Counted from the first letter of the stretch, positions 7,594 through 28,512 are shown. The stretch: 56,983 nt of DNA from Promethearchaeota archaeon (GCA_048938385.1 JBHLMG010000004.1:1-56983), one strand, 5' to 3'. Notes: generated from the letters alone by a model not told the origin. Numbers and translations: made by a program.

Positions 7594-7612
7594 CTTTGGT
7601 CCTCTCTCCTCT

Positions 7613-8652: not shown

Positions 8653-8784
8653 AGCAAGGGTTCACCAATACACAAGGATGATGCTACAGACCTTAAAGAT
8701 GTCTTGTCAACGATAGTTAGATTTGATGTACTAAAAGAGCTGTCAATGGAAAGCCTTTTCCAAAGGACTCGGTAAAGTCAGGCT

Positions 8785-10276: not shown

Positions 10277-10287
10277 ATCGTCAAGGA

Positions 10288-13200: not shown

Positions 13201-13704
13201 ATCTCCGTGAAGTTGTTGGTCTCCTAAATCTTTCGTGATTCCTAGTGCCTCGGTCAATCTAGTAGCACTCTCTCGATATCTACCTGCTCGTGCTAAGGCT
13301 TGACTGATTTCTGTTAACAAGATCACACGGTGTCTTCTATCCTCGCTAGGGCTCGAAATTTCTGCAGCTTGTTCAAGAGCTTGAGTGGCTTCTTCAAGGT
13401 ATCCAAAACTCTGCATGGTCCGCCCCATAGTGATCAGAGACTGTTTCAGAGCTGCAGGATCCGTTTGCTCTCGAAGAATCCGAACTGCTTGAGTGCTACT
13501 TACGAGCGCCTCTTTGTAGCGACCTAGTTCATGTAGAGCCCGAGCAATGTAGGTGCTAACGATGCCGGTTTTTCGTTTTTCTCCCTCTTCTTTATAGATG
13601 TTCAGGGCTAGATTCCATTCCTGTAAAGCCTTCTCAGGTTTTTTCTCCTTGAAATAGCGGAGACCGCTGTTAAACAATTCATCGCCCTTCGGTGGGGTTG
13701 ACAC
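10288..13704 (-). CDS. TPR-repeat protein with C-terminal CHAT (caspase/separase-like) domain, catalytic dyad degenerate
   Basis: About 640 aa of TPR-like repeats. CHAT hallmarks are LYRSLIP, FITDGFLNNVPFD, AGAPSILFTRW and WLAYSLCGNP. Confidence 0.85.
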   Translation of the reverse strand: MSTPPKGDELFNSGLRYFKEKKPEKALQEWNLALNIYKEEGEKRKTGIVSTYIARALHELGRYKEALVSSTQAVRILREQTDPAALKQSLITMGRTMQSFGYLEEATQALEQAAEISSPSEDRRHRVILLTEISQALARAGRYRESATRLTEALGITKDLGDQQLHGDTLAEYARILQQLEEPDKAEKVFLQLIQLWKQIGNPELGAYAQLGLASTYLAKDLFDQAEACIQRAEAFFLKSADAMGTALTKYHKARILLQRGQPETALPLGEAALQYFQSQQNLLAYAETAIVVAQILEHLVQDIRSLRLFDKAIEMFSQVGEQARLLQTHVTKGIALLRLGNRRQAEQEFTQAIRYYQEHKRPVQEAQIYIQVANTFFQLAQFRDAIEQSKMAIQLLRSQQEESLEIKAYRLLLNALQQSQRLQEDLAFLRKAEREATTQGKNWLASSLGVSLALLDQKSQTPDQIRSTLENTIRSENLPEELRAEAAINLGLLFMKNEQYSEAAQYLSQAIKDFKDSSYFDKSATYHHLAEAYRHLKKPNLQKEALLGALQTIDPQKDEVLRGRICLELGPLIEMEDAKAALKYYNAATTIFKTKELTQELLVVLQHHANLLAQTEDYQQALELITEAVRVAEELDIPATGSIERPLEWKHTQQIVGEAINIAAHYYHKHADRAIINRVIDWSTPRKVIRLHPFLAETLGFERCPELSKLMNEDQSLLTKASELRQQLSQTTFEGVNQEETQTRRTALRSELDEVLENININRNVIAAACQDPGRGMVPNDYRMLEKLTALMPPDRRWILINYDVLDEKQRIIITTLDHVGRHTLHILPISADLESVVQRLQQVKTTQELPSIVDLRDMASFLYRSLIPSRLDRELQTHTYGFLQFITDGFLNNVPFDIMYDGKEYWGLKHPMAWVPDFQCLESSLKTKALAQSGPTTVLLGVNSNPDGRSARRQRAEEIARVFLAAVPNQQKVNEPIVLFGREFTRAQLARNVDQPRTLLYFSTPTTLHYRKGEIPLQHPDSLRVIEIGVSSIFRGAPILVLDESTRTEPRADGLSTVGFLRHLVAAGAPSILFTRWTPEPQLQPVFTQSLLKHLYEGDPIAVALFHTRRKLASKGPSPHSWLAYSLCGNPFPGIL

Positions 13705-13848
13705 GATTAACCGTTCCTCTTTTGAATTTATGTTGTTAACCCACTAAAAGTTAGTCCTCTGAAACTAGAAACCCTTAACATGGAAAGAATAACATGGTAA
13801 GATAAAGGAAGCGATTCGGACGCTTCTAGCTGAAGAGATGGTTTTTTT

Positions 13849-15468
13849 CTAGTCAATATAACCCAGGCTTCTAAGTCGATCTTTAATTTCCTCTTCCTCT
13901 TGCTTGCTTAGTTGGACTTGCCTTCGCTTCTCATCTTTTGAGGTATAGAACTTTGGTTTCCTCTTTGCAGGATCAGAATCTGCAAGAAAAATCTCCTCTT
14001 TCACTTCTCCATCCACATCATCAGGTATGGGTAGGTCAAACAAATGGAGGATCGTTGGGGTGATGTCTTGTAGATCAATCTCAGAAATGGAGTGGCCGGC
14101 TTTAATCCATCCACCTTTCGCCATAAATACTCCACTCCGTTCGTGAGTTCCCTTGATTTGTGAAAGGCGTTCAAGGATGTTTTTGCCCGAAAGCGTTTTG
14201 GTTGCCTTATAATCCTCTGAGAGTAGGAGAATCAGATCAGGTGCATTATCTACAAAAGGTCCAGTGTAAATATCACGACGATGGAATACTGCGTTCACAA
14301 CAGAATTTCCCGATTCTGGGTCTTTCAGGTCGGAAAACGCTTTCTTTAACTTGTTGACAAGTTCTTCATATTCTTCTGAAGTTGAAGCATTAATTGTAAT
14401 ACTCTGGGTTTCAGCGGTAAATGTTGGAGAAAAGTATGCCTTGCTCCTCTTTTCATCTACTTCGAGGTGTGAAGGGGAAATGTATCGACGGAATGATGGT
14501 CCAGCAAGCTTGCGTAATTTGTTCCATAACGGTGGAGGAATGATGTTGCGCAGGCGTGACCGATAGATTCCCATACGAGCTAATACTGATGCGAACCGTT
14601 CCGCTTGGATGGGTTTGATCTTCGTTGTTTCCTGTAACCTCTTCTCTTTTCGGTGCTTCTGTTGTATCGTTAATAAACCAAGCTGGTTCAAATAGAGGTT
14701 GATGTGAAAGTCTTTCTTATACGGTGCGAACCCATGATCTGAGAAGATGAATAGGTGAGTGTTAGGATATTCTAATAGCAATTCACCTAAAATTCGATCG
14801 ACATGCTCATAGATTGATAATACTCCTTTTTGGTCGGCCCATCGGTGATGGGCCACAATATCTGTGGCACGAAATAACGCAACAAACAAGTCCCATTCCC
14901 CCTTCTGCATAAGATACCGGATAGCAGTATGTCGTTTGGTGAGTAATTCGTGCAGTTTAGGGAGGAATTGGGAAGGATTCGTGTCTGCAATTGAGGAATC
15001 AAATTGGACAGGGTAACCACCTGTTAAATTGTCCAGTTCTTCCATCAGTTGCTTTGGATGGGCAAAGTCTCTGCCTATTGGAGTTAGCATACCTGAGATG
15101 ATGATCCCGTCAATATTTTCAGGGGGGAATGTAAGGGGAACATTAACTACGATGCATTTCTTGCCAAAATCACTAAGGATGCGCCAAAGGGTCTTTCCTG
15201 TGATTTGAGTAGAATCCATTAAAATTGTCTTTGAGTCTTTTTTTCCCATGAAATCAAAGATTCCGTGTTTACCACAGTTTTTCCCGGTCATCAGTGTTGG
15301 AAACGCTGGGATCGTAGCTGGTGGAATGGTTGATCGCAGAACTCCACTTATACCCGTCTCGATTATCTGTTGAAAGGCTGGTAACTTTCCTGAACTGATT
15401 CCGGGTCTAATTACTCGAAAAGTTCCACCATCGATACCGATTAACAGTACCCTCGGCGTTGCATCCAT
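13849..15468 (-). CDS. Alkaline phosphatase superfamily (type I phosphodiesterase/nucleotide pyrophosphatase-like) protein
   Basis: Motifs IGIDGG, STIPPATIPAFPTLMTG..GKHGIFDF, FSDHGF, DITPTIL and C-terminal RLRSLGYI. Confidence 0.9.
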   Translation of the reverse strand: MDATPRVLLIGIDGGTFRVIRPGISSGKLPAFQQIIETGISGVLRSTIPPATIPAFPTLMTGKNCGKHGIFDFMGKKDSKTILMDSTQITGKTLWRILSDFGKKCIVVNVPLTFPPENIDGIIISGMLTPIGRDFAHPKQLMEELDNLTGGYPVQFDSSIADTNPSQFLPKLHELLTKRHTAIRYLMQKGEWDLFVALFRATDIVAHHRWADQKGVLSIYEHVDRILGELLLEYPNTHLFIFSDHGFAPYKKDFHINLYLNQLGLLTIQQKHRKEKRLQETTKIKPIQAERFASVLARMGIYRSRLRNIIPPPLWNKLRKLAGPSFRRYISPSHLEVDEKRSKAYFSPTFTAETQSITINASTSEEYEELVNKLKKAFSDLKDPESGNSVVNAVFHRRDIYTGPFVDNAPDLILLLSEDYKATKTLSGKNILERLSQIKGTHERSGVFMAKGGWIKAGHSISEIDLQDITPTILHLFDLPIPDDVDGEVKEEIFLADSDPAKRKPKFYTSKDEKRRQVQLSKQEEEEIKDRLRSLGYID

Positions 15469-15617
15469 GTCGTTTCACACTGTGTTCTAATCATTGAGGT
15501 ATCTACTTGAGGGTTATAATGTTTATTCCAAACATCATTCGCCATTTTCTCTTCTTGCTTAGCAGCACCTGAGAAAATCTTTTGCTCTTGAATAGATTTT
15601 AATTAGGCAACAAAGCT

Positions 15618-17243
15618 GTGTCAATATGTTCCTTCACCTCAAATCTGAGGATGTTGTATGAAGTAATGCCACTCACAACTCAGAATAATGCCAATCCTGT
15701 CAAGGTATTATTGATAGGTCTTGACGGGGCTAGCTTCAATTATATCAAGCCTTGGGTAAAAGATTCCAGTTTACCCAATTTAGCAAAGATCATCAAAGAA
15801 GGTGTTTCCGGTCCATTAATCTCCACGATTCCCTCGGTGACTCCACCCGCTTGGACATCAATGCTAACAGGAACCAATCCTGGCAAACATGGAATTTTTC
15901 ACTTCCACGACCTTTATGCAAGACCTCAGAAATCAATCGTCATCAACGCAACTCATCAACGAGATCTAACCCTCTGGGACATTTTAACCGAAGTTGGATT
16001 GCCAAGCATTTTTCTAAATGTTCCAATGACTTATCCACCCGACCCTATCAATGGAATCATGGTTACTGGCTTTTTAACTCCACCAACCTCTGAAGATTAC
16101 ATTCATCCTCAATCGCTTCGTGATCAAATTGATGCTATGGGCTATCAAATCGGTCAGATGTTTGGAGCTCGGTCACATCTTACATACGAGCAAATTGGAA
16201 GGCATATCCAGGCCCGTACTAAAACTGCGAAATGGTTGATGAAGAACCATGAATGGGCTCTCTTCATGGTAGTCTACATGGCCTCAGATGGCGTGGTTCA
16301 TCGGTATCCTGAGAATCCTGCGATAATCAAACATGTCTATAAACTTCTTGACACAGCCATTGGAGAATTAATAGACGCGGCTCCTCCTAACACAGTTGTT
16401 CTTGTTACTTCAGATCACGGAATTGGGTTACTTGACAAGCAATTCATGATTAACACTTGGCTGCGCAATCATTCATTCCTGCAATTCAGGGCGAAACCGC
16501 GAACGGTATCGAACAAAACAACAAAGAACCTTCTGGGAAGAATTGGAGGCATTAAACCAGTCAACCGCTTGCTTCACATCCTTCCTTTTCAACTCCGTAG
16601 AAAGATTTTCCGACAGGTTGTACCGAAATACTCTGATATCGATGTAACGAAATCACTTGCGTGGGGCGTAGCCTCAACTCGTAACTTCGCATTTATGGGA
16701 ATTAATCCATCACCAGATAAGAAAGAATTAGTGGAAAACCTCTACAATAAACTCAGTCAAATCACTGATCCCCGTACTGGACAAAGAATTGTAAAAGCCG
16801 TGCATCCGAGTAATGCTTTGCTGTGGGGTCCTGCGCTTGAAGGAGCACCACAAATTATCATTGAAACGCAGGAGGATTATGGGATAAAATGCGGGTTCAC
16901 TCATGACCGTAACGAAATTCGCCATTATACCAAACCGCTCGCCGCTCATACACGGGAAGGCATATTTCTGGCTTGCGGACCCGGTATCAAGACCCAAAAC
17001 CCAGAACAATTTTCCCCTCTTATCTGGGATGTAATGCCGACTATCCTACAAATATTAAATGTTGCACCACCCCACAATTTGGATGGACGCATCTTGCATG
17101 AGATATTTGAACCTGATTCGCCCTTCTCTCAAGAAAAACTCCAACCTGCAACCTATCGTAAGAGACAACGATCAAGGAAAGATCTAACCGCTGAAGAACA
17201 AAAACGAATTACTGATCGCCTTGAACAATTAGGCTACATGTAA
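15618..17243 (+). CDS. Alkaline phosphatase superfamily protein (paralog of the divergent neighbour; real start probably ~15666)
   Basis: Motifs IGLDGA, STIPSVTPPAWTSMLTGTNPGKHGIF, TSDHG, DVMPTIL and RLEQLGYM. Confidence 0.9.
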   Translation: MSICSFTSNLRMLYEVMPLTTQNNANPVKVLLIGLDGASFNYIKPWVKDSSLPNLAKIIKEGVSGPLISTIPSVTPPAWTSMLTGTNPGKHGIFHFHDLYARPQKSIVINATHQRDLTLWDILTEVGLPSIFLNVPMTYPPDPINGIMVTGFLTPPTSEDYIHPQSLRDQIDAMGYQIGQMFGARSHLTYEQIGRHIQARTKTAKWLMKNHEWALFMVVYMASDGVVHRYPENPAIIKHVYKLLDTAIGELIDAAPPNTVVLVTSDHGIGLLDKQFMINTWLRNHSFLQFRAKPRTVSNKTTKNLLGRIGGIKPVNRLLHILPFQLRRKIFRQVVPKYSDIDVTKSLAWGVASTRNFAFMGINPSPDKKELVENLYNKLSQITDPRTGQRIVKAVHPSNALLWGPALEGAPQIIIETQEDYGIKCGFTHDRNEIRHYTKPLAAHTREGIFLACGPGIKTQNPEQFSPLIWDVMPTILQILNVAPPHNLDGRILHEIFEPDSPFSQEKLQPATYRKRQRSRKDLTAEEQKRITDRLEQLGYM

Positions 17244-17276
17244 AATGCGTTTTAGTAAAATCAGATTTACATCAGA

Positions 17277-18395
17277 ATGATGAAAGGTGTTTATGACTCG
17301 GGTGACAAATTCTTGCGTATCTGTATGGTAAATGAAGTGGCAAATCAGGCGTTTCATCTCACGAAGGGCTTAGTACGCAATGGACATCAAGTCAAAGTCA
17401 TTTTGCATGAAAGTAAAAGATCAGATACCCTGCTTTTTTCTCAACAAACCATTCCTAATGTGGAAGTTTGTTGGCTCAAGGGAGGTCCAAGGAAGTTTCG
17501 TGCCATCACTATGGCCTCTCCGTTAATCCAGGAAATTGTAAATTTTAAGCCAGATCTAATTCATACGCATTATCTTCGAACTCTAGTTCTTCTATCTACG
17601 ATTGCTGCAATAGCGCTTCGTGTACCAGTAATTGGGGTCGCCCATGGCTCCGATATCCGTGGCTTTCGGCAGCAACTTCTTCGGCGAGCGGTATTACGGA
17701 TTTTCATGCACCGAATTAATCGCATAATTCTTACTGCGAAGCATTTCAAAAAAGAGGCGTTTATGGTTCCACAAGAAAAAATGGTGTACATTCCTCGAAT
17801 AATTGATACCGACCTCTTTCAACCTGGTGAGGCATCGCCTGAATTGCGGAATAAATATGGCGAAAAGGTCATCCTCTCAGTGGCTAGTCTCACAAAGATT
17901 AAAACACCAGAAAAAATGGTGCGTGCTTTTCGCTTTGTGGTTGATGAAATACCTGATGCGCAGCTTCTATTCTGTGGAGATGGCCCTGAGAAATCTACGC
18001 TACTTCAACTGCGCGATGATCTAGGCTTGACAAACAATGTTGCCTTTTTGGGAAATGTTCCCAATAGCCAAATGCCTAAATATTATAATTTTGCACGAGC
18101 TGAAGCCCACGCTTTTAATCGCCGAACTCCTGCTTTAGGCATTTCACACTTAGAAGCTCGGGCTTGTGGACTTCCTGTTGTCACCTATGTAGGGAGAAAA
18201 AAAATTCCTGGCGTGATCTCTGTTTATAATGAGAATGATATTGCTGAGGCTCTTATCCATCTTCTTCAGGATACCAAATATTCAGAACAACTTGGGCAAT
18301 TAGGCTTAGCGCATGTTCTCGCTCATTCAAGCATCGAAGCTGTGACCCAACAGACGCTCCAGCTTTATAATCAAGTTCTTGGGAAACGGAAATGA
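17277..18395 (+). CDS. Glycosyltransferase family 4 (GT-B)
   Basis: Motifs KPDLIHTH, AHGSDI, GDGPEK and LGISHLEARACGLPVV. Confidence 0.9.
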   Translation: MMKGVYDSGDKFLRICMVNEVANQAFHLTKGLVRNGHQVKVILHESKRSDTLLFSQQTIPNVEVCWLKGGPRKFRAITMASPLIQEIVNFKPDLIHTHYLRTLVLLSTIAAIALRVPVIGVAHGSDIRGFRQQLLRRAVLRIFMHRINRIILTAKHFKKEAFMVPQEKMVYIPRIIDTDLFQPGEASPELRNKYGEKVILSVASLTKIKTPEKMVRAFRFVVDEIPDAQLLFCGDGPEKSTLLQLRDDLGLTNNVAFLGNVPNSQMPKYYNFARAEAHAFNRRTPALGISHLEARACGLPVVTYVGRKKIPGVISVYNENDIAEALIHLLQDTKYSEQLGQLGLAHVLAHSSIEAVTQQTLQLYNQVLGKRK

Positions 18396-18504
18396 TTAGG
18401 TTAAATGCTGGTAAAAATGAAAATCTGCGAATGGCTTATAATTCAGAAATGCATGGAGACTTTCCATCGAAACTGCTGATAAAAACCTAGTAGATGTATG
18501 TCTC

Positions 18505-20031
18505 ATGGGAATTCGTTCAAAATATGCCAGAACAGCACTACTGAGCACTATACTCTCTAATGCTGGGTTTGTCATCAATCTCATTTACGGAAAAATACTC
18601 GCTGTTGTCATCACCAACCTAGATGAAGTGGGCATTATTGCCGCGCTCAATACAGTGGCAACATTGGTTCTTGGATTATCTACTTTAGGCATTCTATATA
18701 CCGTCACTCAAAAAGCCGCAGCTTCTCAGGGTAAGGGAGACGACAAAACAGCTAGAAGCATCATCTGGAAGGGTTCTTTGATCTATTATGTGACTAGCTT
18801 ACCTTTAGGAGCGGTATTGCTTTTTGTGTTTTTGATAACACAGAATTTACTGATATGGTTCATTCCCATGGCGATTTTCTTACTTTTGGGGCTAGTAATG
18901 AGCAGTCAACGAACTGCGATGAATAGTATGGTTGAACCAGATAAGGGCGTAGTGTTCTCGGGGTTCTATCGATGGACACAGTGGGGACTATCCTTAGGGC
19001 TCATGTACCTGTTTATTTTTCTATCAGTCCCTTACTTCTTTATTGGAATAATCTATGGTTGGGTCGTAAGCACCATCCTGTTTAGCATCATTGGATATTT
19101 GCTCACATCGAAATATGTGAAAGATGTGGACCGAAAACTAAGTCCTTCATCCATGGTCTATCTCAGTTTTGGACTTCCAGTGTTCGGAGCTTATGTGGTT
19201 CGGCTGGTGGGTCAGCAAATTGACAAGCTCTTCATCATGTATACAACTGGTTTAATTGATCCAAGTATATTGGCAAATTACTTCTTTGCTGCTCGAATTG
19301 GGAGCGCCTTGAATGAATTCTCTTTCAGTTTGACCGCTGGGCTAGTTGCTCTCCTTGGTGTCTTATTTGGAATCAGTAAAATACGCATGCAGCGGGCTCA
19401 TGCCGCTGTCCTTCGTTTTCTCCTTGTGATTACTATTCCTTTCTATACAGCAATTGCGGCCTTTGGAGAGCCAATCATTATTCTCTTGTTGGATCCTAAA
19501 TATTTTGGAATACGAACCTTTCTACCGTTTCTCACATTTGCCTTTCTCTTCGAGCTCATTATAGTAGTTCTTCTAATGGGTCGAAGAGCAACTGGAGAGC
19601 AGCGTATTATTCCGATCGTTTGGGGTGGGTTACTAGCAGTAAAATTGGGGCTTCTCGTCTTCGTTGGCTTCGATTTATTAGGAATTGCCATGACTATTCT
19701 CTTCTCTAATCTCGTCTTTGCGATTATCCTCGGATTTTATCTTCGTAAAGAAGTGAAGCTTGGGTGGTTTTGGATTAAGCTAGTTGTACCAATTCTCATT
19801 GTGTTAATTGCAGGAATGCTTAGTTTCTGGTTTTCTCTGGATGTGATTGCTTCTCTTCTCGTCTGTTTAATCGCTATCTTCATCTCAGTTTTTCTAAGCC
19901 TACGGCTACGATTACTCAGCATTGAGGATATAAACATCATTCGAAGCGTGATGCCCTCAAGAATGGTTCGATATGTGAATTTGATCGTGAAAATTGGTGG
20001 ATATCCTGTTGAGGTTTCCAATGAGAAATAA
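18505..20031 (+). CDS. Oligosaccharide flippase (Wzx/MOP family)
   Basis: About 13-14 TM segments; FGLPV...QIDKLFI...ANYFFAARI pattern; sits in a glycosylation cluster. Confidence 0.8.
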   Translation: MGIRSKYARTALLSTILSNAGFVINLIYGKILAVVITNLDEVGIIAALNTVATLVLGLSTLGILYTVTQKAAASQGKGDDKTARSIIWKGSLIYYVTSLPLGAVLLFVFLITQNLLIWFIPMAIFLLLGLVMSSQRTAMNSMVEPDKGVVFSGFYRWTQWGLSLGLMYLFIFLSVPYFFIGIIYGWVVSTILFSIIGYLLTSKYVKDVDRKLSPSSMVYLSFGLPVFGAYVVRLVGQQIDKLFIMYTTGLIDPSILANYFFAARIGSALNEFSFSLTAGLVALLGVLFGISKIRMQRAHAAVLRFLLVITIPFYTAIAAFGEPIIILLLDPKYFGIRTFLPFLTFAFLFELIIVVLLMGRRATGEQRIIPIVWGGLLAVKLGLLVFVGFDLLGIAMTILFSNLVFAIILGFYLRKEVKLGWFWIKLVVPILIVLIAGMLSFWFSLDVIASLLVCLIAIFISVFLSLRLRLLSIEDINIIRSVMPSRMVRYVNLIVKIGGYPVEVSNEK

Positions 20032-20057
20032 AAGGCTGGTTACGGTTTTGATCAGTC

Positions 20058-21122
20058 CTAAATGAGCTCTCCTATCTGTGGCTCTTTTGTAACTTCAACA
20101 AGTACAGGAGTTGTGTCAATTCCTCGTATCCAATATGTGTTTTCGGGAACTTCGGCGCGCGGTTCATCGAGTGTTTGCTCGTCAAGTTCTAAAGCCTGCT
20201 CAAAGAACTTCTTGACTAGGTTGTATCCGACCTTAGCGTACATGAAAGAAGGTGTAAAGAAACGCCCAGGATTGATTTCTGTAACACAGGGGACGTTGTC
20301 TTTGTTTTCTCGCATATCCACTCCAAAAACTCCATGAGGGCTTTTCGAGATGCTGTAGATGGTTTTTTTTCCAATTGAATGGACTTCGTCATCGTTGATG
20401 ACTCGAGCAATTGAGGGTGTGCCGGTAATGCCGCTTGGAGATACATGTCGTATGATGTACCGAATCCGTTCCCAAGCAATCGAACCTACGAGGTTTCCGT
20501 CAAAAAATACCCCTTGCCATGCCAGATTTCGACCAGGTAGGTATTCTTCAGCGCTAAAAGCTCCCCACCCTTCCCAGTAGTCAATCCATCGTTTCGCTAA
20601 TTCTCGATCATTTGCTGGAAGAGAACCACGCCCGCCAGCCCCCCTGATCAACCGAAGCCACACTGTAGATCCAAGTTCATCGAATGCCTTGTCAATATCT
20701 GAGGGATCAGTAACAAGGAATGCATTCGCGCAAGGAATATCTGCTTTATTTAAGGCATGAATTAGTTCATACTTATTGTGACAGAGCCTAACAACCTCAT
20801 TATTAGGTAGACAGGTTTTGGTGTGAATTTTTTCCCGGTTCTTGCTAATAGCCCCAACTTCAACATCAGGTTGGGCATGTATTAAATCGACACTTTCTTT
20901 CTCAATAATCTGATTAAGCGTTTGAATGTACTGGGAATCATCTGCTCGTGGTACGAGGTATTTTTGGTCATAGCCTGTTGTTAAGTAAATTTGCAGCTTA
21001 TCACAATCAACTCCAATCAATCGAAAAATGTCCTGGCCATGGCGTAGGCACCAGACGACATTCTGCGTAGGGGTTCCACCTGCTCCTGTGAGTAGGATAG
21101 TTTTTTTCGTCATTCTCATCAC
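20058..21122 (-). CDS. ATP-grasp ligase (short CarB-like/PylC-like architecture)
   Basis: N-terminal ILLTGAGG Rossmann-like domain; CHNK, GAGGRGS, EEYLPG and TEINPGRF. Confidence 0.85.
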   Translation of the reverse strand: MMRMTKKTILLTGAGGTPTQNVVWCLRHGQDIFRLIGVDCDKLQIYLTTGYDQKYLVPRADDSQYIQTLNQIIEKESVDLIHAQPDVEVGAISKNREKIHTKTCLPNNEVVRLCHNKYELIHALNKADIPCANAFLVTDPSDIDKAFDELGSTVWLRLIRGAGGRGSLPANDRELAKRWIDYWEGWGAFSAEEYLPGRNLAWQGVFFDGNLVGSIAWERIRYIIRHVSPSGITGTPSIARVINDDEVHSIGKKTIYSISKSPHGVFGVDMRENKDNVPCVTEINPGRFFTPSFMYAKVGYNLVKKFFEQALELDEQTLDEPRAEVPENTYWIRGIDTTPVLVEVTKEPQIGELI

Positions 21123-21187
21123 ACATTCTACACATTAGTCCAGCGTATAATGTTAAAGTTGATTGATTAATTTAGCGAGTCTAGTTT

Positions 21188-21808
21188 TCAAAACGATTTA
21201 AAAACGACTTTGATTGCCTCAAAGGCTTCCGCATATGCTCTATTAATTTTAAGGCCTCTTGATCTCATTAAGCTCTCGAGATACTCTTTATTGAAATACT
21301 GCTTTTTAGTTTCGATTTGGGACTGGTAGTTCCAAAGAGCCTGTATCTTTTTTTCAACATGATGATCTTGAAGCGGGATAAAACAGCTTTCTCTAAAAAC
21401 AATGAGATTCCAAGGAAGTTCGTATCCAAGGATGGTGCTATCTTTGAAAATGCGAAGCGCCTCATTGGTTACCGTTTGATGATCTTGATGCAAATCGTTT
21501 GTTGATGGGGTGAGTACTAAGTCAATTTCGGTTTCTTGGTTAAAGGCGTACAGAATGTCAAGGATTTCTTGTCTTAATTTTGGAAAAATTCTTACTTGAA
21601 TATCAAAGATCTTAAAATCTGAAACCCCAAGCACTGCTAAAGATTTCTTACATTCATTCTTAAGGCGCACTTTAGGTGCAGAAAACGCGTAATATGTGAC
21701 ATAGCTTCCATTCTCCACCAATCGTGCGATGGTTCCTCCTGCTCCTAGTTCTCCATCATCTGTATGGGGACTCAACACTAGAACATTTTTAAAAATTGGA
21801 TTTTTCAT
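21188..21808 (-). CDS. PIG-L/LmbE family N-acetylsugar deacetylase
   Basis: Motifs SPHTDDGELGAGG, DLHQDH, YE and AEAF. Confidence 0.92.
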   Translation of the reverse strand: MKNPIFKNVLVLSPHTDDGELGAGGTIARLVENGSYVTYYAFSAPKVRLKNECKKSLAVLGVSDFKIFDIQVRIFPKLRQEILDILYAFNQETEIDLVLTPSTNDLHQDHQTVTNEALRIFKDSTILGYELPWNLIVFRESCFIPLQDHHVEKKIQALWNYQSQIETKKQYFNKEYLESLMRSRGLKINRAYAEAFEAIKVVFKSF

Positions 21809-22860
21809 AGAACTCGTTTGCCTCCTTTGTGGAATATTTGATCCATGAATCTTACCATACGGCGACCATAATCAATTTTGAACTTATATTTCATAACTTC
21901 TTCTTCCGTGAGTTCACCTAATGCTAATTTAATTGCCAAATAAGGAGCAATTAGTTCTTTTTGATAAATAAAGGTGGAAACTCTGGGATTTATCTCAATC
22001 AACCTATTTGCAATGAATTGTAAATTAACACAATAACTTAATGGAATTGCCTTCAAAATAGTTCGAGTTTGTTCTATTAGATCGGGACGATCCACTAATT
22101 CTCCTCGTACTATTACTCCCCATCGAGCTTGTTCCACAGTTTTCACGGTGGTGAGTAATTCTCTTCCTTTCAGAGCTATACAATCACTGGTTAGCTCTCC
22201 TCCTTCAAGATATTCCATCAGAAGTAATTTTGGAAATGTGGGACTCTCTGAAAAAATCTCTTCAAACTCATGGAGTGACATAAACTTACTTTGTGGTTTC
22301 TGGCTTAGTAAGTGATTCTCGCGATCAACCTTGGCGTCGAGAATTCTAACCCCTCTACTCCCCTTTCCAATATGCGGTTTGAATATTACTGGAGACTCAG
22401 GATATCCTAGCTTTGTTGCACTAATCATGAATTCATCTAGAGTTTCAACGGAGTAGTACCGGGGTAGGGGTAATTTCGTGCTTTTTCGAAGGGTTTCATA
22501 CATCAAGTATTTGTTATTAGAAATCACGATGGGTTCTGGATCCGAAACAAGGACTCGGGTTCCTAACGCTTCAAATCTGGCTGCATTCTGAGCTAGAGGG
22601 TACACTTCAAAACTGGATTCGGGAAAGAGAATATCGGGCTGTTCTTTTTCTACAATATCGAGTAAGCGGGGAATGTAGTTCTCTGAATGACCGCTTGGAA
22701 CTGGGTAAAAGCCATCACAAAAAAAGCGTCCTATTGCCTCTTTGTCCATGTCTGTTCCAATGATCTCGATTGATCGTTCGCCATTGTTTTTGAGCATTTG
22801 AATAAGCGTTGACGCCCCGGGGCAACCGCATGCCGTAAGTATAATTTTCAACTTGCGCAT
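21805..22860 (-). CDS. ATP-grasp ligase
   Basis: Motifs ILTACG, NNKY, FKPHIGKGSRG, MEYLEG and NLQF...IEINPR. Confidence 0.88.
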   Translation of the reverse strand: MRKLKIILTACGCPGASTLIQMLKNNGERSIEIIGTDMDKEAIGRFFCDGFYPVPSGHSENYIPRLLDIVEKEQPDILFPESSFEVYPLAQNAARFEALGTRVLVSDPEPIVISNNKYLMYETLRKSTKLPLPRYYSVETLDEFMISATKLGYPESPVIFKPHIGKGSRGVRILDAKVDRENHLLSQKPQSKFMSLHEFEEIFSESPTFPKLLLMEYLEGGELTSDCIALKGRELLTTVKTVEQARWGVIVRGELVDRPDLIEQTRTILKAIPLSYCVNLQFIANRLIEINPRVSTFIYQKELIAPYLAIKLALGELTEEEVMKYKFKIDYGRRMVRFMDQIFHKGGKRVL

Positions 22861-22913
22861 TATAGGTCAGCTCAGAACCATGCGCCTTTAACGAAATTAA
22901 AGCTTCCTTCCGA

Positions 22914-23423
22914 TTAGCCTTTTACTCTTTGCTGTTTTATTGTTGCGAATAGGTCTTGGGGAAGGAGGTAGGGTTCTTTGACGGCTTCAAATCGGAGGGA
23001 GAGGTGATAACTGGTGATGCCTTCGGTTTTACTCATTAGATCTCCGACGATTCGCTGCATTTCTTCTGCTGATGGAAACACTCCTTTAGCGTGGATGTTA
23101 TGGGCTCCCGTTACAACCCAGACAAGGTAGAAATATGGTGATTGAGCGATTGCTTCTGCGACGCGTTTAGTTAGGGCGGGCTCGCATTCCACTCCCACAG
23201 TAATAAAAATTGGTAGATGGAGTTTATCAGGGTTAATGATTACGCTGTATCCGGTGATAACGCCGTTGCGCTCCAGTTTGGAAATGTGATACCGGACTGT
23301 GGCCTCACTAACCTTCATGAGTTGAGCGATTCTTCGAACAGGAGCACGAGCATTTTGTGATAGTAGTTGAATCAGTTTAAATTCAAAATCAGTGATGTTC
23401 GTATCTTTCGCCATTAGCTTCAC
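22914..23423 (-). CDS. Lrp/AsnC family transcriptional regulator
   Basis: N-terminal HTH LSQNARAP..IA..MKVSEATVRY..KLE..GVITGY; C-terminal RAM domain with VTG. Confidence 0.92.
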   Translation of the reverse strand: MKLMAKDTNITDFEFKLIQLLSQNARAPVRRIAQLMKVSEATVRYHISKLERNGVITGYSVIINPDKLHLPIFITVGVECEPALTKRVAEAIAQSPYFYLVWVVTGAHNIHAKGVFPSAEEMQRIVGDLMSKTEGITSYHLSLRFEAVKEPYLLPQDLFATIKQQRVKG

Positions 23424-23590
23424 AACATTAATATTCGAAAAAATTGTGCGGTTATTTTACGCATATCGTTATAAAAATGTGTCTTCTTTAGCATAAATTG
23501 GCGAAAGCAACAGAATTCTACATCAAAATGATACCCGCTTTAATCAGTAATCTTTTTAAAACAAACACCAAGGTTCCTCCACTCTAATCG
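23424..23590. promoter_or_regulatory. Divergent AT-rich promoter region between Lrp and the cysH-cysteate synthase-comDE operon
   Basis: AT-rich gap between divergent starts with TATA-like TTATAAAA and TTTTTAAAA. Lrp control is inferred. Confidence 0.45.
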
Positions 23591-24313
23591 GTGATCTTAA
23601 TGACCGGGGCTCCTGAAAACTTGCTTGAGAAGATCGAAGCCAGTAAACAGATTATTGCCAAAGCACTTGAAAAGTATCCCCGAACTGCAGTTGCCTGTAG
23701 CTTTGGGAAAGACAGCCTAGTCGTGTTAGCATTGGCTCGAGAAGTAAAACCCGATATTCCCGTGTTCTCTGTGCTCACTCCCATGAAACCGCCAGAAACC
23801 TTTGCTTTCAAAGAGGAGCTCGAACATTTTTGGAATATCAATATTAGCGTCTATATGGCAGACCAGGAGCCTATCCCTGACCTTTGGAAAACGGATCCTG
23901 ATCAATGCTGTCAAATATTCAAAGTTGAACCAACTCTTGAAGCGCTCAAGGGATTGGATGCTTGGATTACTGGTCTTCGCAGAACCGAGGGGCGGACGCG
24001 TACTGACTTTGAACCTTTTGAAGTCTGTAATGGTACAATGAAAGTTAATCCCATTCTTGACTGGACTGAACTGGATATCTGGCGGTACACTGCTATCTTC
24101 GGTGTCCCTGTCAATCCCGCTTACCAAAAGGGTTATCGAAGTCTAGGTTGTGCACCTTGCACTGTTCTTGTTAAGGACAATGAAACAGAACGAGCGGGAA
24201 GATGGATTGGAACAAGCAAGTGCGGTGGAGAATGCGGGATTCACACTATGCATAAGAAAGGAAACGGTGGGAAGGTCAAACCCAGGAGTGAACCATGGGC
24301 GACTACCGCATAA
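23591..24313 (+). CDS. cysH: Adenosine 5'-phosphosulfate (APS)/PAPS reductase, [4Fe-4S] type
   Basis: Motifs SFGKDS, CC..FKVEP, WITGLRR, GYRSLGCAPCT, ERAGRW and ECGIH. The CC plus CxxC motifs indicate the Fe-S APS reductase type. Confidence 0.92.
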   Translation: MILMTGAPENLLEKIEASKQIIAKALEKYPRTAVACSFGKDSLVVLALAREVKPDIPVFSVLTPMKPPETFAFKEELEHFWNINISVYMADQEPIPDLWKTDPDQCCQIFKVEPTLEALKGLDAWITGLRRTEGRTRTDFEPFEVCNGTMKVNPILDWTELDIWRYTAIFGVPVNPAYQKGYRSLGCAPCTVLVKDNETERAGRWIGTSKCGGECGIHTMHKKGNGGKVKPRSEPWATTA

Positions 24314-25524
24314 TTTGCCCGCAATGTAAGAAAGAGTTTTCCGGTTATGCTCTTTCCTGCGAATGTTTCTCCCTTCTTCGAACAGAATATAGCAATTCTC
24401 TAAATATTCAAGCTTTACCTGGGCTTTGGCGTTTTCTAGATTGGCTACCCTGCAAGAAGCCACTAGACACTCAAGCAGGTTCAGTCACCTTTCGGAGTTC
24501 AAAGCTAGCGAAGGAACTCGGATTGAAGAATCTCTTCATTGCCTTTACTGGCTATTGGCCTGAGAAGCGGGCTTATAACCTAACGGGCTCGTTTAAAGAC
24601 CTTGAGTCTAACCCAACCATCGCTCGAGCGCAAGAGTCGGGTATCAAAGCCCTTGCCATTGCCTCAGCAGGAAACACAGCGCGTGCTTTTGCTCATCTAG
24701 CAAATAAGACAGGGTTTGATGTATATCTGGTCGTACCAAAATCTTGTTTGGATAAATTATGGACTCCCGAACCCCCAACCAGTAATGTCCACTTATTCAC
24801 CGTCGATGGGGATTATTGTAGTACCATTGAAGTAACCGCACAATTTTGTCAGGTCAACGGGATCACTCCAGAGGGTGGTGCAAAAAATGTTGCCAGGCGA
24901 GATGGAATGGGAACCGTGATGCTGGATGGCGCGTTCACCGTAAAGCGATTACCTGATCATTACTTCCAAGCCATAGGATCAGGAACTGGGGCTATTTCCT
25001 GTTGGGAAATGGCGGATCGGCTGAAAGCCAATGGATGGAAAGGCAATCCGGCTTTGCACCTTTCACAAAATCATCCTTTCATTCCAATAGTCAAGGCTTG
25101 GCAAGCAGGTCGTCGAGAAATTTTACCTGAAGACATGGTCGATCCTGAAGAAAGTATTAGGAAGATGCATGCCGTTGTGTTATCTAACCGCCATCCTCCC
25201 TATGCGATCGGCGGTGGCGTGTACGATGCTTTGACGGATACACAGGGAAAGATGTATTCGGTAAATAACGCTGAAGCGCAGAAAGCAGGAAAGCTATTCG
25301 AGGCACTCGAGGAGATTGATTTAGTTCCAGCTGCCGAAGTTGTTGTTGCTTCCCTGCTTCAGGCAGTGGAGGCGGGTACAATAAACAAAACAGACCACAT
25401 CCTTCTGAATGTCACGGGGGGTGGATTAAAGCGTCTCAAAGAGGATTTTGGTTTCTTTGAGATCGAACCCGAAGGCACTCTGAGCTTTGATAACTGCTCT
25501 TTAAATCCGAATAATGTGTATTGA
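24295..25524 (+). CDS. Cysteate synthase (PLP-dependent, threonine synthase paralog)
   Basis: GYWPE...GSFK (PLP Lys), ASAGNTARAF, EGGAKNVARRDGMGTVM, YFQAIGSGTG and VLSNRHPPY, as in Methanosarcina-type cysteate synthase; adjacent to comDE. Confidence 0.9.
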   Translation: MGDYRIICPQCKKEFSGYALSCECFSLLRTEYSNSLNIQALPGLWRFLDWLPCKKPLDTQAGSVTFRSSKLAKELGLKNLFIAFTGYWPEKRAYNLTGSFKDLESNPTIARAQESGIKALAIASAGNTARAFAHLANKTGFDVYLVVPKSCLDKLWTPEPPTSNVHLFTVDGDYCSTIEVTAQFCQVNGITPEGGAKNVARRDGMGTVMLDGAFTVKRLPDHYFQAIGSGTGAISCWEMADRLKANGWKGNPALHLSQNHPFIPIVKAWQAGRREILPEDMVDPEESIRKMHAVVLSNRHPPYAIGGGVYDALTDTQGKMYSVNNAEAQKAGKLFEALEEIDLVPAAEVVVASLLQAVEAGTINKTDHILLNVTGGGLKRLKEDFGFFEIEPEGTLSFDNCSLNPNNVY

Positions 25525-26674
25525 TATTTTTCAATTGCTATTGGTGACGAAAGTGAATGTTTCTGAAGAAATAATTGCCAAGCTGAAAACAGCAGACATC
25601 GATTTCTTTGCTACTTATCCCTGTGCAAAAATTCAGAGCCTTCTCATGTTAACTCACTCGCACTTCCAAAGTCTTGGGGTTACAAAAGAGGAAGAAGGTG
25701 TAGGCATCTGTGCTGGGGCTGCTCTAGCAGGAGCAAAGCCAGCTATGTTGATCCAAAGTACGGGTCTTGGAAATATGATCAACGCCCTCTGTTCGTTGAC
25801 GCTAACCTACCGCTTACCCTTATTGATAATGGTTAGCTGGCGTGGGGTTTATCAGGAAATTATTCCAGCTCAAACTCCCTTGGGGCAGAGCCTTCCTAAA
25901 ATCCTCAAAGCTATTGGTGCTACATTTTATGTTATCGAGAAACGCAGTAATCTAACAAGACTCGATAAAGCAATCAAGGAAACATATTCTCGAAATTCGC
26001 TTCAAGTGGTCCTGTTTAGCCCCCAATTATGGGAAAAGGAAGAATTTCCCGATGTTAGGCAGGAAAACTTTCTTAGTACAAATAGTGCGCCAAACCTTGC
26101 CCCTGTATCGGTCGAAAGAAAATTAACCCGATATGAGATACTCCAATCTTTAGCACCTTTCTTGGAAAAGAAAGTAGTAATATCGAATATCGGTTACCCA
26201 TCCCGTGAACTCTATCAGGTAAAACCACAACCATCGAATTTCTACATGCTTGGAAGCCTTGGACTAGCTTCAGCAATTGGTCTTGGCGGATCAGTTTTCA
26301 CTAAACGCGAAGTGGTGGTAATTGATGGTGATGGAAGCCTTTTGTCAAATCTTGGTGTTCTGGCCTCAATTGCTCAACTAGCTCCACCTAATCTAACTAT
26401 AGTCGCTATAGATAACAGCGCCCACGGATCAACAGGCAATCAAACTACTCCAACAGCAGGTACCGTAGATTTAGGGTTAACAGCTAAAGGTTTAGGAATT
26501 GAAAAGGTCTTCCGGTTTTCTGATCGTAAAGAACTCGAGGCACTTCCCTCAGTTATCGGTGAGGGACCAACCTTCCTTCATGTGATTGCTCGCGCAGGAA
26601 ACGCAAAGGTTCCTCCTATTCCATTGTCACCGACTGTAATAAAACAGATCTTCATGGAAGAACTCCAGAAATAG
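25514..26674 (+). CDS. comDE: Sulfopyruvate decarboxylase, fused alpha/beta ComDE (likely start GTG ~25553)
   Basis: Alpha half has KEEEGVGICAGA..AG and IQSTGLGNMINAL. Beta half has NIGYPSRELY, NFYMLGSLG, the TPP motif DGDGSLL...DN and GSTGNQ. Confidence 0.9.
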   Translation: MCIDIFQLLLVTKVNVSEEIIAKLKTADIDFFATYPCAKIQSLLMLTHSHFQSLGVTKEEEGVGICAGAALAGAKPAMLIQSTGLGNMINALCSLTLTYRLPLLIMVSWRGVYQEIIPAQTPLGQSLPKILKAIGATFYVIEKRSNLTRLDKAIKETYSRNSLQVVLFSPQLWEKEEFPDVRQENFLSTNSAPNLAPVSVERKLTRYEILQSLAPFLEKKVVISNIGYPSRELYQVKPQPSNFYMLGSLGLASAIGLGGSVFTKREVVVIDGDGSLLSNLGVLASIAQLAPPNLTIVAIDNSAHGSTGNQTTPTAGTVDLGLTAKGLGIEKVFRFSDRKELEALPSVIGEGPTFLHVIARAGNAKVPPIPLSPTVIKQIFMEELQK

Positions 26675-26783
26675 GATCTAGATTTTATTGTCCAATCGAT
26701 TTATAAATAAAAGCGAATATCGCTTTTTTCGATTTGCAAATACCGTCTCGGTAACCGTATTTGAATAACCGGGGCATTCTTCC

Positions 26784-27905
26784 ATGAAAATTCTTCATTT
26801 TTCCGATGTTGGACTCCCTGATACCCGAGTGGAACGCTCTGCATTGTTTGCAAAACAAAAAGGGTGGGAGGTAGTCTTCGCTGGTGGACGGCCACCGCAA
26901 ACCCAAATCTTCAATGCGTTCGAAACAATTCATTACCGGTACTGGAAGGCTTCGGAAAAAACTGGATTTCCAGGTACTCTACGCAGTATCCGCCGCTGGT
27001 TACAACGCTTACTTCATGATGAAGAACCTGACCTAATTCACGCGCACGACATATTTGCGGCTAAAATAGCACGCGAAATAGGTCATCCTTTCGTTTACGA
27101 TGATCACGAAATCTGGGGCTCACGAATCTCCTATCAAGGCTCTCAAGTGATAAAGCAAAATCGTACTTTGCTGCGTCAAATAGCCACATGGTTCGCCATT
27201 AGAAACTGGCGAAAATGGGAATCAGAGATTTTCAAAGCAGCTCCCATAATTACAGTAAGTGAAGAAATTGCAAAACTGTATCGCCGAATTAACTCTAATG
27301 TCTTCGCCATTCCTAATTTACCACTAAGACAGGAAATCGATCTCATACCGCCTAATGATAATGTTAATGATTCTTTTCGGGTCGCTTATGTGTCACGCCA
27401 TCGTCTGCCCTTAGAGCAGCGTCGGGATACACTTGCCTTGACTGTATGGCTTCAAAACCGCTTTGACGCCTCCTTAGTCTTTATTGGTCCCAAAGTAATT
27501 GAAACTGAGGAAGTTGAAAACCACGGATATGTTAGTCACCAAGAAATGCTTCGAATCTTATCAACTTGTGACATCGCCCTGATGGGTCAAAAAACTAGAC
27601 TTCCTGTCTACTCGTTTCAAAACCGGTTTCCTCTTTTTCTTCACGCAGGACTCAAAACGATTGTTCCGAATTCGAAAATTGTAGAGGCAAAATTTTGTAG
27701 GGATCATGCCGTGGGATGGTCGTGGCATTCTGCAGACAATTTAAAAACAATACTTAGGCGACAAGTTGTGGAATTTAACGCAGATGTTGAGCAATGGAAT
27801 CAAGATAAGGGGCGCGTCCGTGAAATTGCCAAGAAATACCTGGTGTGGAATTTCTTTGAAAAGCGGCTCGAAGAAGCATATGAAAGCGCTTTAACGATGA
27901 AATGA
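26784..27905 (+). CDS. GT-B fold glycosyltransferase (GT4-like)
   Basis: Motifs DTRVER, PDLIHAHD, VYDDHE, ITVSE and NRF..FLHAGL. Confidence 0.75.
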   Translation: MKILHFSDVGLPDTRVERSALFAKQKGWEVVFAGGRPPQTQIFNAFETIHYRYWKASEKTGFPGTLRSIRRWLQRLLHDEEPDLIHAHDIFAAKIAREIGHPFVYDDHEIWGSRISYQGSQVIKQNRTLLRQIATWFAIRNWRKWESEIFKAAPIITVSEEIAKLYRRINSNVFAIPNLPLRQEIDLIPPNDNVNDSFRVAYVSRHRLPLEQRRDTLALTVWLQNRFDASLVFIGPKVIETEEVENHGYVSHQEMLRILSTCDIALMGQKTRLPVYSFQNRFPLFLHAGLKTIVPNSKIVEAKFCRDHAVGWSWHSADNLKTILRRQVVEFNADVEQWNQDKGRVREIAKKYLVWNFFEKRLEEAYESALTMK

Positions 27906-27948: not shown

Positions 27949-28512
27949 CTATGTGCTGAATACAACTGATGCTGTTGGTGTAGTTCCTTCTAACTGAAAT
28001 AGCTGAATGGCTCTAGTCAAACTTTCAAAGACCTGGTTAACATTACTACCGGTTTTCGATGAATATGGGATGAAAGCGAAAATATCATGATTGGTACAAA
28101 AGCTACGAATTACCTCATGAGAAATATGTGAGGCTAGATCCGATTTCGCTCCTGCAAGGACGATCGCGTGTTGGTGGGAGGGATGAGCGTATCGTCCAAC
28201 CAGATTCAACCAAACTTCTGCTTCGTTAAGGGTGTCCGGACGAGTTTGATCGATGACTAGTACAACCGCACTGGCCCCTGAACAAAATTGAGGCATAAGA
28301 AACCGAAACCGTGATTGACCACTAAGATCCCATATACTCAAGTTTAATGGCCCTGTTTCCCCCAAACACACTTTTTGAGCGAAGTTAACGCCTATAGTTG
28401 GGGCAGCTTCCAAGTACTCATTGAACACATATCGTTGCACCAAAGTGGTCTTTCCAACTTGACCTGCACCAACGATTAGCACCTTCACAAGTGGCGTTTG
28501 TTGTCGTAACAC
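27949..28512 (-). CDS. Rab-like small GTPase
   Basis: G1 GAGQVGKT, PTIGVNF, G3 WDLSGQSRF, variant G4 AKSD and G5 SSKTG. Confidence 0.9.
   Translation of the reverse strand: MLRQQTPLVKVLIVGAGQVGKTTLVQRYVFNEYLEAAPTIGVNFAQKVCLGETGPLNLSIWDLSGQSRFRFLMPQFCSGASAVVLVIDQTRPDTLNEAEVWLNLVGRYAHPSHQHAIVLAGAKSDLASHISHEVIRSFCTNHDIFAFIPYSSKTGSNVNQVFESLTRAIQLFQLEGTTPTASVVFST

Follow-up and report, generated by a model that had tools for sequence, protein, structure and literature searches.

We describe a gene island at positions 13849-27905 of a 56,983-nucleotide stretch of DNA from a Promethearchaeota archaeon (GCA_048938385.1, JBHLMG010000004.1:1-56983; hereafter, the window), in which enzymes of the front half of coenzyme M biosynthesis are encoded next to sugar-modifying enzymes. 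We conclude with moderate confidence that this is a sugar-tailoring island with its own sulfonate supply, the product of which would be a sulfonate-bearing surface glycoconjugate. The supply arm consists of cysH, the gene for cysteate synthase (CS) and comDE, encoding a fused sulfopyruvate decarboxylase, and is followed by a glycosyltransferase gene (GT2); the divergent arm is headed by an Lrp-type regulator and encodes an ATP-grasp ligase (AG1) and a PIG-L/LmbE-type de-N-acetylase. Gene calling by listing of open reading frames, together with Pfam and NCBIfam profile searches, bore out all of the genes, coordinates and the divergent layout given in an initial annotation of this DNA. The Asgard-like host that it had proposed also agrees with the Ras-family GTPase gene adjoining the island, and with the records of relatives being named Hermodarchaeota or Promethearchaeota.

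The supply genes are tightly packed, with cysH and CS overlapping by 19 nt and CS and comDE by 11 nt, and GT2 starts 110 nt past the end of comDE. CysH belongs to the PAPS_reduct family and carries the Fe-S ligands Cys106-Cys107 ... Cys187-x-x-Cys190 and the catalytic motif E214-C215-G-I-H (ECGIH). The PAPS_reduct fold, the CC...CxxC ligands and the C-terminal ECG(I/L)H motif together characterize Fe-S adenosine 5'-phosphosulfate (APS) reductases, with the subfamily model TIGR02055 giving 148 bits, under its cut-off of 235. An ATP sulfurylase gene is located elsewhere in the window's genome, at a contig edge, and no APS kinase was found in that genome. Because CysH is of the Fe-S type, ATP sulfurylase is present and APS kinase is absent, the route from sulfate through APS and sulfite to cysteate is self-contained. 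The best threonine synthase model of NCBIfam gave CS 99.9 bits against a cut-off of 303; the protein is instead a full-length equivalog match to TIGR03844, and a separate ThrC-like paralogue is encoded on contig C23. In ComDE, the alpha domain (TIGR03845) scored 180.1 bits, above the cut-off of 148, and the beta domain (TIGR03846) 208.7 bits, just under the cut-off of 221.5—a value exceeded by the orthologue in genome G006, with 225 bits. Family membership establishes sulfite supply, cysteate formation and sulfopyruvate decarboxylation as the predicted functions of the operon. A phosphonate reading, in which ComDE would be a phosphonopyruvate decarboxylase (Ppd), was rejected: the Ppd model gave 199.6 bits, far under its cut-off of 312.5, and phosphoenolpyruvate (PEP) mutase was found in none of five genomes of the genus. 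In a CS tree with threonine-synthase outgroups, five Asgard clades formed an unresolved polytomy, and the tree does not show whether loci free of the coenzyme M synthase MMP16 share a single origin; two distinct CS clades inside genus g32 hint at transfer. Genus g32 also has a second, divergent gene of the PAPS-reductase family, 32-36% identical to CysH, at a distance of about 3 kb from its AG1 homologues of 51% identity (L071 in genome G108, 13413-14045; L072 in G100, 6874-7449).

Canonical coenzyme M synthesis is unlikely in this organism, judging from its gene content. The initial annotation had proposed that the sulfonate is passed on to a glycan, and had set a genome search for methyl- or alkyl-coenzyme M reductase (MCR/ACR) as a test that could refute this. 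Profile searches of the window's genome (2.48 Mb, 89.8% complete) returned no McrA/AcrA, no ComA and no PF01837/COG1900 protein (MMP16/ComF or L-ASST), and TIGR03256 (MCR/ACR) had no match in G000 or G008; PF01837 matched both positive controls, M. jannaschii and M. acetivorans. The absence of COG1900 is informative because, in Methanosarcina acetivorans, coenzyme M is made mainly by MMP16, the gene of which lies beside cs and comDE, and because L-ASST, its likely back-up, also belongs to COG1900 (Chadwick et al., PMC11844431). COG1900 occurs in 183 of 400 Asgard genomes and in none of the 18 genomes of the window's family, nor in the 22 of family f19, which carries cysH-CS-ComDE too. We also rejected the PEP-dependent route to coenzyme M, as ComA was not found in six genomes (G000, G006, G011, G092, G116 and a Bathyarchaeia metagenome-assembled genome, MAG). 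Since the window's genome is without a coenzyme M synthase, the aldehyde formed by ComDE would not be turned into a thiol.

Helarchaeia-like Asgard archaea served as an internal control. In G135 (L038, C120; 231-7907), CS and ComDE are followed by HdrC-like and HdrB-like genes, an HdrA/MvhD fusion and MMP16 (TIGR03287, 546 bits; cut-off 364), and in G140 (L031, C3; 14419-18393) the annotated cluster comprises CS, ComDE and the HdrC-like and HdrB-like genes only; three to five AcrA-like genes were found in these genomes, at 540-560 bits and under the McrA cut-off. Genome G020 likewise encodes MMP16 (TIGR03287, 502 bits against 364) beside ComDE-CS. There, the three genes adjoin HycI and the large and small subunits of a NiFe-hydrogenase (L024, C3:10000-29999; 7231-13899), and, with no MCR/ACR match in this 87% complete genome, G020 may represent coenzyme M synthesis without alkane metabolism. 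CS loci are of two kinds: those in the textbook arrangement, linked to Hdr genes and MMP16 (G135), to Hdr genes (G140) or to MMP16 (G020), as opposed to those led by cysH, with neither MMP16 nor MCR/ACR anywhere in the genome (the window's genus, g32 and g35).

CS was detected in 17 of the 400 Asgard genomes, including 7 of the 15 genomes of the window's genus. Within this genus, the block PIG-L-AG1-Lrp<>cysH-CS-ComDE-GT2 (<>, divergent transcription) is kept in G012, G008 and the MAG locus L156, and the genes between the block and a flanking TPR-CHAT gene differ from genome to genome. Lrp is retained between AG1 and cysH in relatives, and GT2 always lies directly 3' of ComDE in the genus. The ComDE-GT2 pair is retained in G006 and G011, both of which are devoid of cysH and CS—in G006 within a nonulosonic-acid glycan island with NeuB, a CMP-sugar-type cytidylyltransferase, a TagF-like transferase, another ATP-grasp gene and an Asn-synthase-like gene. 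Co-variation of GT2 with CS inside the genus was discarded as evidence, GT2 being present in these CS-negative genomes as well. In G007 (L025, C14:17000-36999, about 8165-12839), cysH, CS, ComDE and the gene for a second ATP-grasp ligase (AG2) are each found as two tblastn pieces in different frames, and AG1, PIG-L and GT2 are missing; this island is either a decaying copy or the result of assembly errors. Because the operon occurs in 7 of 15 genomes and is interrupted in G007, it fits better as an accessory trait than as the source of an essential cofactor. Among 85 Asgard genera, AG1 orthologues were found only in g1, g2, g32 and g35, three of which are genera with CS and without COG1900.

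The genes for PIG-L and AG1 overlap by 4 nt and are translationally coupled, which suggests that the two enzymes act in turn on one sugar, PIG-L removing the N-acetyl group and AG1 then forming an amide at the expense of ATP. The metal-binding motifs of PIG-L are intact (H15-T-D-D, HTDD; H107-Q-D-H, HQDH). The Pfam matches PF15632, PF21360 and PF02655 place the ligases of the island in the ATP-grasp fold, and the AlphaFold2 model of AG1 (predicted local distance difference test score, pLDDT, 90.9) had 2pn1, biotin carboxylases and the L-amino-acid ligase RizA as its top Foldseek matches. When solved structures were searched by sequence, AG1, AG2, PIG-L and GT2 had weak or generic matches only. 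More than 860 AG1 homologues were retrieved, the top 120 of which share 62-79% identity and bear the source labels Hermod-, Thor-, Heimdall- and Bathyarchaeota.

To place AG1 in its genomic contexts, we combined an exact protein look-up with an alignment-based metagenome scan; a single-protein AG1 search of genome contigs yielded five loci only. AG1-PIG-L is a near-invariant pair in polysaccharide loci of archaea and bacteria, with a PIG-L gene adjoining the AG1 homologue in essentially every metagenome locus with enough flank. In the Bathyarchaeia-type loci L058, L095 and L157, the pair is followed by a GT2-family transferase and by split ComE and ComD, both of which score above the curated sulfopyruvate decarboxylase cut-offs; a class-III aminotransferase gene is present in L058 and L157, its position shifted between them. 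In L093, ComE-ComD is divergent from AG1-PIG-L. Elsewhere, the pair adjoins a NitT/TauT-type importer (an SsuA-like substrate-binding protein, two permeases and an ATPase), namely in the Asgard genomes G092 and G119, in the Anaerolineae MAG locus L065 and in the exopolysaccharide (EPS)-type loci L061 and L154; L158, also of the EPS type, has the binding protein of the importer only, beside TctCBA transporter genes. The glycan genes in these loci include Bac_transf in L154, a Polysacc_synt flippase in L158, and Wbp-type (WbpA/B/D/E-like) nucleotide-sugar genes in L061 and L158. No SsuA/TauA-like importer was found in the window's own genome.

A census of the neighbours in metagenome loci with at least 6 kb of other DNA, with the AG1 clade defined by at least 55% identity, placed supply genes (importer or ComD/E) near 10 of 17 AG1-clade loci as compared with 1 of 15 loci of a distant clade of the same pair (Fisher's exact p 0.003, which is an overstatement because of related contigs). 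The linkage between sulfonate and glycosylation genes foreseen in the initial annotation is found outside the genus for AG1/PIG-L beside ComD/E or SsuA-like importers, and does not extend to CS-ComDE, which is not adjacent in other Asgard families. In the window, a de novo sulfonate operon stands in the importer's place, and this is the strongest clue so far to the chemistry of the cargo.

Some further features of these loci deserve mention in their own right. The AG1 homologue of L065 (Anaerolineae MAG JALWUZ010000012.1, 5279-9592) lies behind the SsuA-like importer and is 64% identical to archaeal AG1, which suggests that the cassette has moved between domains. Both in L050 (8237-10412, Asgard G006) and in L158 (10319-12998, a bacterial-type polysaccharide cluster), the AG1/ComDE genes have in their vicinity a gene for a DUF7033 protein and, after it, one for a different type of ATP-grasp ligase; the two may constitute another conserved tailoring pair. 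The AG1 cluster of L158 is followed at 14409-17530 by the TctCBA tripartite tricarboxylate-type transporter (TTT) and a lone NMT1-family binding protein; TTT systems carry sulfolactate in some bacteria.

In the mechanism that we propose, ATP sulfurylase and CysH would provide sulfite, CS would combine it with phosphoserine to give L-cysteate, a housekeeping aminotransferase would convert L-cysteate into sulfopyruvate (a transamination that we infer), and ComDE would decarboxylate the latter to sulfoacetaldehyde. The aldehyde would then yield a stable C2 sulfonate, most likely taurine by transamination—a preference based on the class-III aminotransferase of the Bathyarchaeia-type loci, and one that parallels the conversion of phosphonopyruvate into 2-aminoethylphosphonate (AEP). 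Alternatives would be sulfoacetate by oxidation, considered because the genome holds eight AOR paralogues, isethionate by reduction, or cysteate itself. The sulfonate would be passed to the module formed by GT2, PIG-L and AG1, which would make or take a sugar of the N-acetylhexosamine (HexNAc) type; PIG-L would free the amine, and AG1 would form an ATP-dependent amide that installs the sulfonate-bearing group. Either a sulfo-acid (sulfoacetyl or cysteoyl) would be placed on the freed amine, replacing the acetyl group, or taurine would be joined to a carboxyl carried by that sugar or by an acyl spacer. Such a spacer could be supplied by second ATP-grasp enzymes (AG2 in the window; a different type in G006, L158 and G119), and a neighbouring membrane protein might help export the charged glycoconjugate. 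In relatives without the operon, an SsuA/TauA-like ABC importer appears to take over the supply of this module. We advance a wider proposal only tentatively: in Asgard archaea, Bathyarchaeia and several bacterial phyla, a widespread module of the PIG-L plus AG1 type may decorate surface glycans with C2/C3 sulfonates of the taurine type, obtained from a repurposed front half of coenzyme M synthesis or by SsuABC-like import. The surface is favoured as the destination because most AG1-PIG-L contexts are polysaccharide loci.

Several observations weigh against a sulfonated surface glycoconjugate. The steps beyond sulfoacetaldehyde are inferred from gene neighbourhoods, and the island itself encodes no aminotransferase, aldehyde dehydrogenase or reductase to finish a C2 sulfonate. 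The structural matches of AG1 are to generic ATP-grasp enzymes only and do not indicate its substrate. The best NCBIfam model for the importers' binding proteins, SsuA_fam, gave 104.1 and 94.3 bits, under the cut-off of 163.5, so that a sulfonate is only their putative cargo; the second-best, a taurine-binding model, gave 37.8 and 22.6 bits (cut-off 304). In families f19 and f21, CS-ComDE is not beside AG1: G100 has 180 kb between them, and in G119 they lie on separate contigs; four AG1-positive Asgard genomes have no CS, and several CS-positive genomes, many of them fragmentary, have no AG1. In G006, G011 and the Bathyarchaeia MAG, ComD/E occurs with neither CS nor ComA as a source of sulfopyruvate, which is therefore only the presumed substrate of the decarboxylase there. 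Synteny within one genus does not count as independent evidence. In a sulfidic sediment dweller, moreover, the absence of COG1900 does not strictly exclude coenzyme M, because a Methanosarcina MMP16 deletion mutant at high sulfide still made it and grew without its addition (PMC11844431). As for the initial sulfonate-to-glycan proposal, it is partly upheld, in that MCR/ACR does not explain the operon and that the link to sugar genes reaches beyond the genus; the flipped N-glycan or glycolipid that it envisaged is a possible form of the product. Against it, AG2, GT1 (a further glycosyltransferase), the flippase-like gene and the alkaline-phosphatase-superfamily genes AP1 and AP2 are variable parts of the island that are not kept with the operon within the genus.

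The alternative that survives best, although we regard it as unlikely, is a soluble small-molecule glycoside, in which GT2, PIG-L and AG1 would act like MshA/MshB/MshC or BshA/BshB/BshC: a HexNAc would be transferred onto a small acceptor (e.g., isethionate or sulfolactate), after which its acetyl group would be removed and an amino acid attached as the new acyl group, giving a sulfonate-bearing cytoplasmic glycoside (a compatible solute or a low-molecular-weight thiol) in place of a surface glycan. The AlphaFold2 model of GT2 is a confident GT-B structure (pLDDT 92), the nearest solved folds of which are GT4 enzymes that include MshA, BshA, sucrose-phosphate synthase and tetrahydrobiopterin glucosyltransferase, all acting on small acceptors; however, the matches are generic for GT4, with PglA, WbnH and WaaG at the same scores, and the modelled fold is compatible with either a small or a lipid-linked acceptor. 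Similarly, BshB1 is the best NCBIfam match of PIG-L, but at 45.9 bits (cut-off 182.5). Genus g35 has the trio AG1-GT4-PIG-L—its GT4 protein, encoded between the other two, being 29% identical to GT2 over the full length—standing alone beside an MscL channel gene, with no flippase or other glycan gene nearby, and ComDE or ComE is always directly followed by a glycosyltransferase. Against this, most other AG1-PIG-L contexts contain Bac_transf, Wzy, Polysacc_synt flippases or Wbp-type genes, and in the window the pair has a GT4 gene, the gene for a flippase-like membrane protein and other tailoring genes around it.

A coincidental adjacency is improbable. In this case, the operon's product would be free taurine, isethionate or sulfoacetate, serving as an osmolyte or sulfite sink, AG1-PIG-L would attach an unrelated acid or amine, and the two would share a variable island. 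Variable glycan islands do gather accessory genes, G100 has the operon at a great distance from its AG1 homologue, and in G118 and G095 CS lies beside unrelated genes. Yet the association recurs in at least three gene orders, with three kinds of supply gene and in two domains, and the census found it to be specific to AG1's own clade; in G100, cysH<>CS-ComDE adjoins a GT2-family transferase gene and a TagF-like transferase gene homologous to the one beside PIG-L in the window's genus (L073).

That the operon makes coenzyme M after all—with the last step performed by some other enzyme or abiotically with sulfide, a role outside alkane metabolism (HdrB-like substrate or protective thiol), and the sugar genes as mere neighbours—can appeal to CS and ComDE being genuine coenzyme M enzymes of Methanosarcinales and to the MMP16 mutant (PMC11844431), to seven CCG/HdrB-type genes in the window's genome and to the example of G020, but is quite improbable in view of the lack of COG1900 throughout the family and of MCR/ACR, an operon present in about half of the genus and apparently decaying in G007 (a poor fit to an essential cofactor), a ComDE-GT2 pairing that persists where CS is gone, and the recurrence of AG1-PIG-L beside ComD/E in Bathyarchaeia-type contigs.

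Table 1. Genes and intergenic region of the island, with positions in the window.
Feature	Position	Strand	Supporting evidence
AP1: soluble alkaline-phosphatase-superfamily protein	13849..15468	-	PF01663 Phosphodiest, Pfam 123 bits; 0 transmembrane segments
AP2: AP1 paralogue, 32% identity (tblastn)	15618..17243	+	PF01663, Pfam 140.6 bits
GT1: GT4-family GT-B glycosyltransferase	17277..18395	+	Glyco_transf_4 and Glycos_transf_1 domains
Polytopic membrane protein, possible divergent MOP/Wzx-type flippase	18505..20031	+	about 10-12 hydrophobic segments
AG2: second ATP-grasp ligase	20058..21122	-	PylC-like_N, ATP-grasp_3
PIG-L/LmbE-type de-N-acetylase	21188..21808	-	PF02585, 54.3 bits (cut-off 28.2)
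AG1: conserved ATP-grasp ligase, proposed sulfonate-handling amide ligase	21805..22860	-	ATPgrasp_Ter, PylC-like_N
Lrp/AsnC-type regulator, head of divergent arm	22914..23423	-	HTH_24 + AsnC_trans_reg
Divergent intergenic region (167 nt) between Lrp arm and cysH arm	23424..23590
CysH: Fe-S, thioredoxin-type APS reductase	23591..24313	+	NF002537, 199 bits (cut-off 154)
Cysteate synthase (CS)	24295..25524	+	TIGR03844, 549 bits (cut-off 324.9)
ComDE: fused sulfopyruvate decarboxylase	25514..26674	+	TIGR03845, TIGR03846
GT2: divergent GT-B (GT4-like) transferase	26784..27905	+	Glyco_transf_4 N-domain only

Among the variable genes of the island (Table 1), AP1 shares 35% identity with a Phosphodiest gene that adjoins AG1-PIG-L in the Bathyarchaeia-type loci, all three of which contain such a gene. 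Soluble PF01663 proteins of the alkaline-phosphatase fold accompany AG1-PIG-L both in Hermodarchaeia (window 13849-17243) and in Bathyarchaeia-type loci (L058, 320-1822; L157, 6684-8192; L095, 12-764). An orthologue of GT1 was found only in G007 among the relatives examined; AG2, which shares 27% identity with AG1 over the N-terminal half only, is missing from G012 and G008. The membrane protein had been described as a Wzx-like flippase. Its polytopic nature holds, and a flippase is a possible assignment: the protein itself has no Pfam match, even at E=5, and its orthologue in L073 (45% identical) gives sub-threshold matches to Polysacc_synt (E 7e-4, 19.6 bits against 28.2). Directly downstream of GT2, at 27949-28512, lies the gene for the Ras-family small GTPase. 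A Ras/Roc GTPase is also encoded near the AG1-GT4-PIG-L trio of genus g35 (L059, 15208-15900), and the presence of such a gene near both AG1 loci is probably a coincidence.

A HexNAc residue has a mass of 203.079, and a sulfoethyl-HexNAc is computed as 203.079 + 107.988 = 311.0675. We considered this structure for a 311.08 Da unit in the N-glycan of Prometheoarchaeum (PMC11284389) and rejected it, the computed value being outside the rounding range; a C2 phosphonate or phosphate increment fits better.

CS and ComDE serve as markers for coenzyme M synthesis and, by extension, for methane or alkane metabolism; metagenome counts based on them can mislead, because three Asgard genera carry these genes without a coenzyme M synthase or an enzyme that uses the cofactor. 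In uncultured archaea and bacteria, polysaccharide loci commonly contain a ligase/deacetylase/importer module; the window also gives its cargo a chemical name, and thereby provides a testable hypothesis of sulfonated surface sugars. If this is true, permanently anionic sulfonates at the cell surface would alter its charge, its binding of cations and its contacts with viruses and partner cells, effects that matter for the lineage closest to eukaryotes. It would also provide a sulfonate counterpart of the phosphonate (AEP) decoration of glycans, and give the enzymes of coenzyme M biosynthesis a second, non-cofactor role. A full-text literature search found no paper linking cysteate synthase with Asgard archaea and nothing relevant linking sulfopyruvate decarboxylase with glycosyltransferases; on the amide linkage of taurine to uronic acids or O-polysaccharides, and on ATP-grasp glucuronate amidoligases, it returned nothing usable among the papers covered.

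Like the coenzyme M genes of Methanosarcinales (CS MA3297, ComDE MA3298 and MMP16/ComF MA3299; PMC11844431), the island has CS and a fused ComDE in one operon and the same predicted chemistry up to sulfoacetaldehyde; it differs in lacking COG1900, MCR/ACR and the Hdr linkage, in having an APS reductase upstream and a glycosyltransferase downstream, and in being accessory in its genus. With the mycothiol and bacillithiol pathways it shares a GT4-fold transferase, a PIG-L/LmbE de-N-acetylase and an ATP-dependent ligase acting after deacetylation. However, the ligase here is an ATP-grasp enzyme and neither a BshC nor an MshC of the Cys-tRNA-synthetase-like kind, PIG-L falls far short of the BshB models, the contexts are mostly polysaccharide loci, and there is no evidence for a thiol product; judged by its sequences, the module resembles the Bsh/Msh pathways in outline but is not a member of them. 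In the Wbp/Vim linking-sugar pathway of Porphyromonas gingivalis and Tannerella forsythia (PMC7468200, PMC13086638), the N-acetyl group of a Wbp-type diacetamido uronic sugar is likewise swapped for another acyl group (seryl) on a surface glycoconjugate, and WbpA/B/D/E-like genes flank AG1-PIG-L in L061 and L158; that pathway relies on the CE4 deacetylase VimE and the acyltransferase VimA and involves no sulfonate, as opposed to PIG-L and an ATP-grasp ligase here. The importers of the relatives correspond to TauABC/SsuABC of E. coli in their composition and in their best matches, SsuA_fam followed by the taurine-binding model. They differ in that their binding proteins fall under the curated cut-offs and in that they lie in glycan loci rather than in sulfur-starvation regulons, and the window's genome has none. 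Finally, the AEP decoration of glycans and lipids employs PEP mutase, phosphonopyruvate decarboxylase and AEP transaminase. The proposed pathway would differ from it in using a sulfonate instead of a phosphonate, with no PEP mutase, a decarboxylase that scores as the sulfopyruvate type, and an amide formed by an ATP-grasp enzyme rather than phosphonyl transfer; in both, a thiamine pyrophosphate-dependent decarboxylase of the ComDE family followed by a transaminase would yield a C2 amino acid analogue, as the ComD/E and class-III aminotransferase genes of the Bathyarchaeia-type loci suggest.

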